From Escherichia coli (lineage in GTDB: Bacteria; Pseudomonadota; Gammaproteobacteria; Enterobacterales; Enterobacteriaceae): a DNA stretch of 64,000 bases. The stretch lies in NCBI RefSeq assembly GCF_965641715.1, contig NZ_OZ282453.1. One strand, written 5' to 3'. The notes below the pieces were generated by a model. The model did no database searches. It was given only the letters and a program-made list of their open reading frames with translations, and had not been told where the DNA came from. Both the position numbers and the translations under genes were made by a program. This document shows, piece after piece, positions 11,560-62,708 of this stretch (positions within the stretch are counted from its first letter, which is position 1; each line of letters starts with the position of its first letter).

Positions 11560-11732
11560 AAAGTTCTTTGACGTTGCATTGCTGGCGTAAATGTCAGCAA
11601 TGCAGCATTTCCTCACGATTCTCCTTTGACGATCGCACTTTTTGCTCGTTATGATGGCGTCGCTAGCCTCAGTAAATCCTTACTCCGGCGGTGCGCAACC
11701 CGTGCGCGTGAACCACTATCTGAATGCTCATC

Positions 11733-32161: not shown

Positions 32162-32244
32162 ATAAAAAAACCTGCTGGTGAGGCAGGTTCTTTTATTTAC
32201 TACTTTGATGTTAAGTTACTGATACTGCAACATGGCATCTCAAC
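32162..32244 (-). ncRNA. orzO: putative type I antitoxin sRNA (OrzO-like)
   Basis: minus-strand promoter TTGCAA-17 nt-TATAAT; 5' end is a 19-nt near-direct copy (17/19) of zorO 5' UTR positions 32392-32410, so the RNAs can pair; 3' end at hairpin ACCTGC/GCAGGT plus U-run. Confidence 0.5.
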
Positions 32245-51639: not shown

Positions 51640-52674
51640 ATGATGTTCAGAAATGCAATATTACTAATATTTATATTGTGGGCTAATTTTACCTGGGCTG
51701 GATGTCGTACTACTGCATCATTAAATATTACTGATAGTATTAATGTTGGGGGGATTTTAGCGAATGAAACTTCCTTTAGTAAAAGTGTCGTGTTTACTGG
51801 GATATCTTGTGATACGAGCACGGATAAAATAGTTTATAAAAATATCCAAAGTGATTGGGTTGAAGTTGGGCCTTTTGGTAATGGCGAAAAATTAAAGGTT
51901 AAAATAGAGTCTTTAGGTAAAACCAGCGACACGATTGGGAAATCCAGCAATGCGCAGGCAGTATTACCCTATGTGGTTAAAATAGCCAGAGGTACACCTG
52001 ATTTTACTGGAGAAAGAAAATCTACCTGGTTTATTTCAGATACCGTGATTGCAAATATTGGCGGTGAGTCATCGTCATCCATCGACTTTTGGTTGGGTAT
52101 TTGTAAGGCATTGAAGTTTAACTGGTGTGTGAATTATCTCACCAGCAAACTGGCGGGGGATACTTTTACGCTTGGGTTAAGTATTTCCTATTATCCTAAA
52201 AATACGACCTGTAAGCCTGAAAACACAGTTATAAAAGTAGATGATATCGCCTTGTCCCAGCTCAGAAATCAGGGAAAGATTGCGGCGAACAGTAAGGAAG
52301 GAACAATTACGTTGAAATGTGATAATCTTTTCGGCGACAAAAAACAAGCATCGCGGAATATGGTTGTATATCTTTCTAGCAGTGACTTAGTTAAAGGAAG
52401 TAATACTATTTTGCGTGGTAAAACAGATAATGGTGTAGGGTTTGTGTTGGATCTAACAGAACCACCAAAAGGGACTGAGGCTGCCATTAAAATTTCGGCC
52501 AACGGCGATCAGGGCGCGGCGACATCATTATGGAAAACAGATAAACCAGGAGTTTCATTAAATAGCAACATTATTAATATACCTGTCATGGCCAGTTACT
52601 ATGTATATGATGAAAAAAAAGTTAAATCTGGCGTACTGGAGGCAACCGCATTAATCAACGTGAAATACGACTAA
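51640..52674 (+). CDS. yehA: fimbrial adhesin-like protein YehA
   Basis: 344 aa with signal peptide, last gene of the chaperone-usher operon. Confidence 0.88.
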   Translation: MMFRNAILLIFILWANFTWAGCRTTASLNITDSINVGGILANETSFSKSVVFTGISCDTSTDKIVYKNIQSDWVEVGPFGNGEKLKVKIESLGKTSDTIGKSSNAQAVLPYVVKIARGTPDFTGERKSTWFISDTVIANIGGESSSSIDFWLGICKALKFNWCVNYLTSKLAGDTFTLGLSISYYPKNTTCKPENTVIKVDDIALSQLRNQGKIAANSKEGTITLKCDNLFGDKKQASRNMVVYLSSSDLVKGSNTILRGKTDNGVGFVLDLTEPPKGTEAAIKISANGDQGAATSLWKTDKPGVSLNSNIINIPVMASYYVYDEKKVKSGVLEATALINVKYD

Positions 52675-54283: not shown

Positions 54284-54556
54284 ATGTCTCATACAATCCG
54301 TGATAAACAGAAACTGAAAGCGCGTGCCAGTAAGATTCAGGGCCAGGTCGTGGCGCTCAAGAAAATGCTCGACGAGCCGCACGAATGCGCTGCAGTTTTA
54401 CAACAGATTGCTGCTATCCGTGGCGCGGTAAACGGTCTGATGCGGGAAGTGATTAAAGGTCATCTGACGGAACACATCGTTCACCAGGGGGATGAGCTAA
54501 AACGTGAAGAAGATCTGGATGTTGTTCTGAAGGTGCTGGATTCATATATCAAATAA
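54284..54556 (+). CDS. rcnR: Ni/Co-responsive repressor RcnR (CsoR/RcnR family)
   Basis: 90 aa, [21 protein letters not shown]. Confidence 0.93.
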
Positions 54557-54644
54557 TTTATTAACGCGATTGTAAAACTGCCGTTTTTCCTCGTTTACAA
54601 CGGGTGCGCTGGACATTACCATCCTCCTCTGCGATTTATCATCG

Positions 54645-54778
54645 CAACCAAACGACTCGGGGTGCCCTTCTACGTGAAGGCTGAGAAATACCCGTATCAC
54701 CTGATCTGGATAATGCCAGCGTAGGGAAGTCACGGACCACCAGGTCATTGCTTCTTCACGTTATGGCAGGAGCAAACT
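54645..54778 (+). ncRNA. TPP riboswitch (THI-box) leader of thiMD
   Basis: conserved THI-box CTGAGA...ACCTGATCTGGATAATGCCAGCGTAGGGAA; expression platform overlaps the thiM RBS GGCAGGAG. Confidence 0.9.
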
Positions 54779-55567
54779 ATGCAAGTCGACCTGCTGAGTT
54801 CCGCGCAATCTGCGCACGCGTTACACCTTTTTCACCAACATTCCCCTCTTGTGCATTGCATGACCAATGATGTGGTGCAAACCTTTACTGCCAATACCTT
54901 GCTGGCGCTCGGTGCATCGCCAGCGATGGTTATCGAAACCGAAGAGGCCAGTCAGTTTGCGGCTATCGCCAGTGCCTTGTTGATTAACGTTGGCACGCTG
55001 ACGCAGCCACGCGCACAGGCGATGCGTGCCGCCGTTGAGCAAGCAAAAAGCTCTCAAACCCCCTGGACGCTTGATCCAGTAGCGGTTGGTGCGCTCGATT
55101 ATCGTCGCCATTTTTGTCATGAACTTTTATCTTTTAAACCGGCAGCGATACGTGGTAATGCTTCGGAAATCATGGCATTAGCTGGCGTTGCTACTGGCGG
55201 ACGGGGAGTGGATACCACTGACGCGGCAGCTAATGCGATACCCGCTGCACAAACACTGGCACGGGAAACTGGCGCAATCTTCGTGGTCACTGGCGAGGTG
55301 GATTATGTTACCGATGGTCGTCGCACCGTTGGCATTCACGGCGGCGATCCGTTAATGGCCAAAGTGGTAGGAACTGGCTGTGCATTATCGGCAGTTGTCG
55401 CTGCCTGCTGTGCGTTACCAGGCGATATGCTGGAAAATGTCGCATCTGCCTGTCACTGGATGAAACAAGCCGGAGAACGCGCAGTCGCCAGAAGCGAGGG
55501 GCCAGGCAGTTTTGTTCCACATTTCCTTGATGCGCTCTGGCAATTGACGCAGGAGGTGCAGGCATGA
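54779..55567 (+). CDS. thiM: hydroxyethylthiazole kinase
   Basis: 262 aa, immediately after the TPP riboswitch. Confidence 0.93.
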
Positions 55568-56364
55568 AACGAATTAACGCTCTGACGATTGCCGGTACTG
55601 ATCCGAGTGGTGGTGCGGGGATTCAGGCCGATCTTAAAACCTTCTCGGCACTTGGCGCTTATGGTTGCTCAGTTATTACTGCTCTGGTGGCGCAAAACAC
55701 CCGTGGCGTACAGTCGGTGTATCGCATTGAGCCTGATTTTGTCGCTGCCCAGCTCGATTCGGTGTTCAGCGATGTGCGAATCGACACCACTAAAATCGGT
55801 ATGTTGGCGGAAACCGATATTGTTGAAGCGGTGGCAGAACGGTTGCAACGTTATCAGATCCAAAACGTGGTACTCGACACCGTTATGCTGGCAAAAAGCG
55901 GCGACCCACTGCTTTCACCTTCGGCGGTTGCTACGCTGCGCAGTCGATTATTGCCACAGGTTTCATTAATAACGCCAAACTTGCCCGAAGCTGCTGCCTT
56001 GCTCGACGCGCCACACGCGCGCACCGAACAGGAAATGCTGGAACAAGGGCGATCGCTGTTGGCGATGGGCTGTGGCGCAGTGCTAATGAAAGGTGGTCAT
56101 CTGGATGATGAGCAAAGCCCGGACTGGCTGTTTACCCGCGAGGGTGAACAACGGTTTACCGCACCGCGCATTATGACCAAAAACACCCACGGCACTGGTT
56201 GTACACTCTCTGCGGCGTTGGCTGCACTACGCCCGCGCCATACAAACTGGGCTGACACCGTACAGGAGGCAAAAAGCTGGCTTTCATCGGCGTTAGCACA
56301 GGCCGACACGCTGGAAGTTGGTCACGGTATTGGTCCGGTTCACCACTTCCACGCCTGGTGGTGA
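55564..56364 (+). CDS. thiD: hydroxymethylpyrimidine/phosphomethylpyrimidine kinase
   Basis: 266 aa; ATGA overlap with thiM. Confidence 0.93.
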
Positions 56365-62595: not shown

Positions 62596-62708
62596 GTAGG
62601 ACGGATAAGGCGTTTACGCTGCATCCGGCAACCTATGCCTGATGCGACGCTGAAGCGTCTTATCATGCCTACACAGCGCTGCCACGTATGTTTACACTGC
62701 ATCCGGCA
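62596..62708. repeat. BIME with three REP units
   Basis: GTAGGACGGATAAGGCGTTTACGCTGCATCCGGCA, GCCTGATGCGACGCTGAAGCGTCTTATCATGCCTACA and partial TGTTTACACTGCATCCGGCA. Confidence 0.75.

Follow-up and report, generated by a model that had tools for sequence, protein, structure and literature searches.

The stretch of DNA analysed here, which we call the window, is 64 kb of Escherichia coli sequence in which the genes rcnA, rcnR, thiM, thiD, yegX and yegW follow one another in the standard order between positions 52000 and 58000. This segment is at most 98.1% identical to the corresponding sequence of any of 5426 complete RefSeq E. coli genomes. Our subject is the region 54645-54778, between rcnR and thiM, which comprises a riboswitch aptamer and its expression platform and ends one base before the AUG of thiM (54779). 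The features to which we refer are the following.

54284-54556: rcnR, the gene upstream of the riboswitch
54542-54748, minus strand: antisense open reading frame of 68 aa with an ATG start, judged not to be a gene
54594-54622, plus strand: thiMD promoter-like site found by consensus scan, with -35 TTTACA (54594-54599), a 17-nt spacer and -10 TACCAT (54617-54622)
54630-54646, plus strand: predicted 5'-terminal hairpin upstream of the aptamer, UGCGAU-UUAUC-AUCGCA, with a perfect 6-bp stem
54648-54744, plus strand: TPP riboswitch aptamer, placed by the RF00059 match, by folding and by RefSeq annotation at the homologous position
54654-54657/54728-54731, plus strand: aptamer helix P1
54658-54661/54691-54694, plus strand: aptamer helix P2
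54664-54670/54676-54681, plus strand: aptamer helix P3, with loop 54671-54675
54700-54703/54722-54725, plus strand: aptamer helix P4
54706-54709/54716-54719, plus strand: aptamer helix P5
54672 (nt 29), plus strand: A54672, a G in K-12, in the apical loop of P3 and the sole difference within the aptamer
54684-54697: AGAAATACCCGTAT, the unoccupied equivalent of a 14-bp core, lying within the aptamer across J3/2 and the 3' strand of P2
54726-54729 (nt 83-86), plus strand: GAAG, the 'anti-anti-SD', overlapping the 3' strand of P1 and pairing with the anti-Shine-Dalgarno element in the TPP-free fold
54751-54754 (nt 108-111), plus strand: anti-Shine-Dalgarno element CUUC (PMC1920254), pairing with GGAG when the aptamer is enforced
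54769-54772 (nt 126-129), plus strand: GGAG, the Shine-Dalgarno element of thiM, 6 nt 5' of the AUG
54779-55567, plus strand: thiM, hydroxyethylthiazole kinase (TIGR00694, 337 bits; PF02110, 360 bits), the first ~23 nt of which lie in the platform
54821-54850, plus strand: C-rich, G-free, rut-like Rho loading region at thiM codons ~15-24, assigned by composition
55564-56364, plus strand: thiD, HMP/HMP-P kinase (TIGR00097, 363 bits), its start overlapping the thiM stop (ATGA)

We scanned both strands of the 64 kb against 4227 Rfam families at their gathering thresholds. The scan returned a single TPP riboswitch match, RF00059 at 54648-54744 on the plus strand, with a score of 71.2 bits against a gathering score of 54.3 (E 5e-12), and this match covers model positions 1-105 of 105, the full length of the family. 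The thi box is intact, both the CUGAGA of J3/2 and the ACCUGAUCUGGAUAAUGCCAGCGUAGGGAA segment being identical to those of K-12. The aptamer ends 35 nt 5' of thiM on the same strand, with thiD as the next gene and the promoter-like site upstream, and RefSeq carries a "TPP riboswitch" feature at the homologous site in the rcnR/thiM interval of K-12 and of strain 2012C-4221, as well as in other E. coli. When a 401-nt segment spanning the site was used as query, 5424 of the 5426 complete genomes gave matching sequence. Folding the isolated aptamer (54653-54732) gives P1-P5 as the minimum free energy structure, so that the two-arm architecture of P1, a P2/P3 arm and a P4/P5 arm is recovered. For P3 we rejected the register of the Rfam alignment, which contains a C-A mismatch, and adopted one with a bulged C54667, which has six standard pairs and is compatible with the compensatory variants described below.

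The first-pass annotation had read a full THI-box in this leader and had named an Rfam covariance-model scan as the way to check it; the full-length match, well clear of the family threshold, and the RefSeq feature bear that reading out. We are in hardly any doubt that what lies in the 5' leader of the thiMD operon transcript is the thiM TPP riboswitch of E. coli. This riboswitch is already known, being among the first to be described and structurally solved, and its identification here is correct but ordinary. Ligand binding and structures have been published for the K-12 RNA (PMC1920254, PMC2018614), and from its near-identity to that RNA we infer that the RNA of the window would bind TPP as well.

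Elsewhere in the window there are matches to a full-length OrzO-P antitoxin RNA (RF02083, 88.8 bits; 32164-32237, minus strand), which implies a zor-orz type I toxin-antitoxin locus, to the Peptidase-S11 cis-regulatory RNA motif (RF03039, 72.8 bits; 11648-11728, plus strand) and to naRNA4, a REP-derived nucleoid-associated RNA motif (RF02564, 64.5 bits; 62599-62669, plus strand).

Two numbering schemes from the literature can be laid over the leader. In the '165 thiM' scheme the window coordinate equals the nucleotide number plus 54643, making 54645-54778 nt 2-135, and the landmark bases A84, A85, G86, U87, G100, G101, G126, G127 and G129 all fit. The scheme of Bastet et al. (PMC5499598) counts from the transcription start, with residue 151 as the first base of the open reading frame, U152 in the AUG and G142 in the ribosome binding site; here the window coordinate equals the nucleotide number plus 54628, and the G142C mutation of that study falls in the thiM Shine-Dalgarno element. 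By this numbering the thiMD transcript probably starts at about 54629, a position 7 nt past the promoter-like site, so that the two agree. The hairpin at the 5' end is predicted in the minimum free energy structures of both the free and the aptamer-enforced leader.

In order to model the expression platform, we folded the leader both unconstrained and with the aptamer helices enforced, the latter as a stand-in for bound TPP. In the unconstrained minimum free energy structure, 54714-54729 (nt 71-86) pairs with 54751-54768 (nt 108-125), placing CUUC on GAAG and leaving GGAG largely free; this is the TPP-free helix that the model and probing of PMC1920254 describe. With the aptamer enforced, CUUC pairs instead with GGAG inside a helix of 10-11 bp, the two alternatives for the anti-Shine-Dalgarno element being mutually exclusive. 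The mean unpaired probability of GGAG is 0.002 in the enforced fold, against 0.54 in the unconstrained fold and 0.33 with a shuffled linker, and a longer construct shows the same sequestration upon enforcement. The enforced fold also contains a longer stem, 54733-54746 with 54788-54803, that reaches into thiM, which fits the published inclusion of the first nucleotides of the reading frame in the platform (residues 151-172 of PMC5499598, the first ~23 nt of thiM, to ~54800). In the nearest-neighbour model the free and enforced states lie ~1 kcal/mol apart, a gap that ligand binding could plausibly tip. The stability of the whole leader relative to shuffled sequences (z = -0.5) is uninformative, given that the RNA has two competing folds. 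A search of 54400-54900 found no intrinsic terminator, and control by intrinsic termination was rejected on the grounds that this interval contains no site combining a GC-rich hairpin with a U-tract.

As modelled, then, the platform is that of the published ON/OFF scheme, a translational OFF switch that works by sequestering the Shine-Dalgarno element. When TPP is scarce, 54714-54729 in the 3' half of the aptamer, with GAAG among its bases, would pair with 54751-54768, which contains CUUC, leaving GGAG free; thiM would be translated, and thiD then by way of its overlapping start. With TPP bound, P1-P5 would lock and release CUUC, allowing the CUUC:GGAG helix (P8) to form as part of a larger stem, in which the first codons of thiM also take part, and initiation would be blocked. 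The consequences are expected to extend to the mRNA itself. A C-rich, G-free stretch ~45-70 nt into thiM would, on a message free of ribosomes, be exposed to Rho, which would terminate within the first ~35-40 codons of thiM and so lower thiMD mRNA also. In composition, the 25-nt windows at transcript positions 193-198 contain 40-48% C and 0% G. By numbering, the rut of K-12 maps to 54829-54838 and its Rho-dependent termination sites map to 54859, 54865 and 54890. TPP binding, translational repression and Rho dependence are all carried over here from experiments on K-12, and their extension to the window is by analogy.

The first-pass annotation had stated that the platform sequesters the ribosome binding site of thiM and that the riboswitch controls translation of thiMD. 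The first of these agrees with our folding, in which the near-complete pairing of GGAG is with the published anti-Shine-Dalgarno element. The second holds as well, with two qualifications. Control would be direct for initiation at thiM; thiD starts within the thiM stop codon, a 4-nt ATGA overlap, and thus depends on thiM translation and operon polarity, so that the effect on thiD is indirect. Nor is the control translational alone, given the Rho layer described in K-12 (PMC5499598), whose sequence element is present in the window.

There are three readings that differ from ours and that the data allow us to weigh. The first is that the riboswitch is purely translational, TPP hiding the ribosome binding site and leaving mRNA synthesis unaffected. 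A platform of the required kind is present, an intrinsic terminator is absent, and this was the view of the earlier literature cited in PMC5499598. In K-12, however, TPP-induced repression of translation exposes a rut at ~201-210, Rho stops transcription at 231, 237 and 262, and thiM codons 20-34 are needed for Rho-dependent termination; transcriptional fusions carrying at least 34 thiM codons are repressed by TPP, and bicyclomycin abolishes that repression (all PMC5499598). Since the rut-like stretch is intact in the window, we regard a switch acting on translation only as unlikely. The second reading is that the rare A54672 allele, carried by at most 11 of 5405 complete E. coli genomes, impairs the riboswitch such that its response to TPP is lost. 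Against this, the substitution falls in the P3 apical loop, which is hypervariable across genera: TTT, CTT, TGC, CAC, CTG and TAC all occur in thiM leaders that look functional, and the TAC of the window is also found in E. whittamii and in two other genera. The predicted energies are unchanged by the substitution, and the Rfam score remains well above threshold. Impairment therefore seems to us most improbable, and we consider A54672 to be neutral, as the loop variation and the modelled energies suggest.

The third reading concerns the opposite strand, where the antisense frame might encode a real small protein overlapping the riboswitch. The frame has an ATG and 68 codons, the minus strand has a weak promoter-like site at 54894-54867, and a few automatic annotations name the product 'hypothetical protein'; the K-12 peptide belongs to a 14-member cluster of such automatic calls, of 45-94 aa and from few contigs. 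Yet the peptide has no NCBIfam match, its sole Pfam match is sub-threshold (E 0.066), the protein collection searched contains no exact match to the version in the window, and the RefSeq records examined (K-12 and 2012C-4221) show no PGAP-annotated CDS opposite the riboswitch. The position of its start is common to only 6 of 107 related leaders; the same frame runs to 83 aa with a different stop in other Escherichia species, and to only 34 aa in a genome in which the rcnR-thiM spacer has been replaced. The frame overlaps, moreover, both the 3' end of rcnR and the promoter of thiM. In most genera an antisense frame is likewise open across the aptamer (median longest 64 aa), but the ends of these frames are unrelated, as would be expected where a conserved RNA is by chance free of stop codons in one antisense frame. 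The first-pass annotation had dismissed this minus-strand frame as an artefact, and with no family match, no CDS call in the RefSeq records examined and no conservation of its ends, that is how, from its sequence, the frame is best read; a genuine protein here has next to no likelihood. Our preferred reading is thus unchanged, namely a thiM TPP riboswitch that would act on translation initiation and, through Rho, on the mRNA.

We next consider how far this arrangement is conserved. A scan for the exact P4/P5 32-mer in one genome per species gave at least 120 loci, and among the matches listed thiM lies directly downstream at 113 of 120. For alignment we used 107 distinct enterobacterial thiM leaders, collected by an exact aptamer word among the matches listed. 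The pairs of P1, P2, P4 and P5 are kept in 100% of these leaders; for P4/P5 and part of P1, invariance follows from the manner of collection and so carries no covariation information. P3 shows compensatory changes at all six of its pairs. GGAG is invariant and CUUC invariant or nearly so, the core pairs of the TPP-free helix are kept in 106-107 of the 107 leaders, and the four core pairs between the Shine-Dalgarno element and its partner never vary, which means that they lend no covariation support. Next to that core, some lineages carry changes on both strands of the helix, and many cells are unpaired. For the stem 54733-54746/54788-54803, whose conserved 3' strand encodes D-L-L, the alignable clade contains no informative changes.

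Repeating the folding test across this set gave a mixed result. Sequestration by CUUC in the enforced fold is strong in the window and its close relatives, the Escherichia-like leaders, and the unpaired probability of the Shine-Dalgarno element falls below 0.05 in 25 of the 107 leaders. Over the whole set of 107, CUUC:GGAG sequestration is not above the shuffled-linker control, with a median of 0.25 against 0.26. This suggests that the OFF structure may differ outside the Escherichia/Kluyvera group.

The aptamer and its upstream spacer have been disrupted in other E. coli genomes, in two different ways. The first, seen in 508 complete genomes, O157:H7 among them, is a replacement: ~2.27 kb with three small CDS oriented opposite to thiM (an 'outer membrane protein', a hypothetical protein and an HTH-like protein) stands in place of the entire rcnR-thiM spacer (54557-54644), which in the window contains the promoter-like site and the putative transcription start. 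Homology restarts exactly at 54645, 3 nt 5' of the aptamer match, the 5'-terminal hairpin at 54630-54646 is missing, and the last 300 nt of the replacement contain no sigma-70-like site that we could find on the thiM strand. The spacer type of K-12 and the window is common to E. albertii and E. whittamii and is thus probably ancestral.

The second disruption is an insertion. In isolate NRZ105822 an element of ~15 kb lies between rcnR and thiM, with genes for an integrase, a primase, SSB, a major capsid protein, a prohead protease, a portal, a head-tail connector, an HNH endonuclease and small and large terminase subunits, and with no tail genes annotated. A copy of the 14-bp core AGAAATACCCGTAT is found at each of its junctions, which places the element inside the aptamer. 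At the occupied site in NZ_OZ501607.1 the element divides the aptamer, the annotation lists no riboswitch, and neither junction of the element retains a whole aptamer. The left junction is present in 76 of the 5426 complete E. coli genomes (about 1.4%); the window carries the empty site. A tentative reading, which we hold to be possible though rather doubtful, is that a ~15-kb satellite resembling the cf-PICIs, which encodes a capsid but no tail, uses this conserved core of the aptamer as its attachment site in the chromosome, and, jointly with this and just as tentatively, that in those 76 genomes the element divides the aptamer and cuts thiMD off from its promoter. A cf-PICI preprint mentions six E. 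coli attB sites. Among the papers searched, none joins phage-inducible chromosomal islands and thiM.

The value of these results for the window lies in correct annotation: a non-coding leader of 150 nt is explained, a spurious 68-aa reading frame is removed, and the first ~100 nt of thiM are marked as regulatory, for Rho loading and termination. Nothing new follows for the mechanism of the thiM riboswitch. The satellite in the aptamer and the replaced promoter could interest those who study satellites or thiamine regulation in EHEC, although neither is a property of the window. Should the attachment target prove to be undescribed, it would be a case of a mobile element that lands in the aptamer of a riboswitch and so frees thiamine salvage from TPP control.

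Placed beside known systems, the leader differs from the TPP riboswitches of Bacillus and other Firmicutes, which act via a terminator/antiterminator hairpin; these have the aptamer class and the OFF logic in common with the window, whose leader contains no intrinsic terminator. The thiC and thiB/tbpA riboswitches of E. coli belong to the same RF00059 class and bind the same ligand, but they are at other loci, outside the window, and have other expression platforms; in PMC5234074 and PMC11487190 they are described as affecting both translation initiation and mRNA level. The thiM riboswitches of other Enterobacterales, among them Salmonella, Citrobacter, Klebsiella, Enterobacter, Pectobacterium and Serratia, have the same P4/P5 32-mer, CUUC and GGAG, with thiM directly downstream, and depart from that of the window in the hairpin of the linker and in the sequence flanking P8. 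For many of these leaders the model gives the Shine-Dalgarno element a different partner, another C-rich segment of the linker, so that the geometry of their OFF state may differ. The nearest relative is the thiM riboswitch of K-12, which has the same locus order (rcnR, riboswitch, thiM, thiD), the same aptamer class and the same anti-Shine-Dalgarno element, Shine-Dalgarno element and start codon. Over 54500-54900 the two sequences differ at 7 bases, of which only 54672 is in the aptamer, and over the leader itself (54629-54778) they are one base apart. The differences comprise the A for G at nt 29, one change in the promoter spacer (54603) and four within the first 37 codons of thiM (54797, 54802, 54856 and 54889), and none of them touches a pairing element of the switch core.
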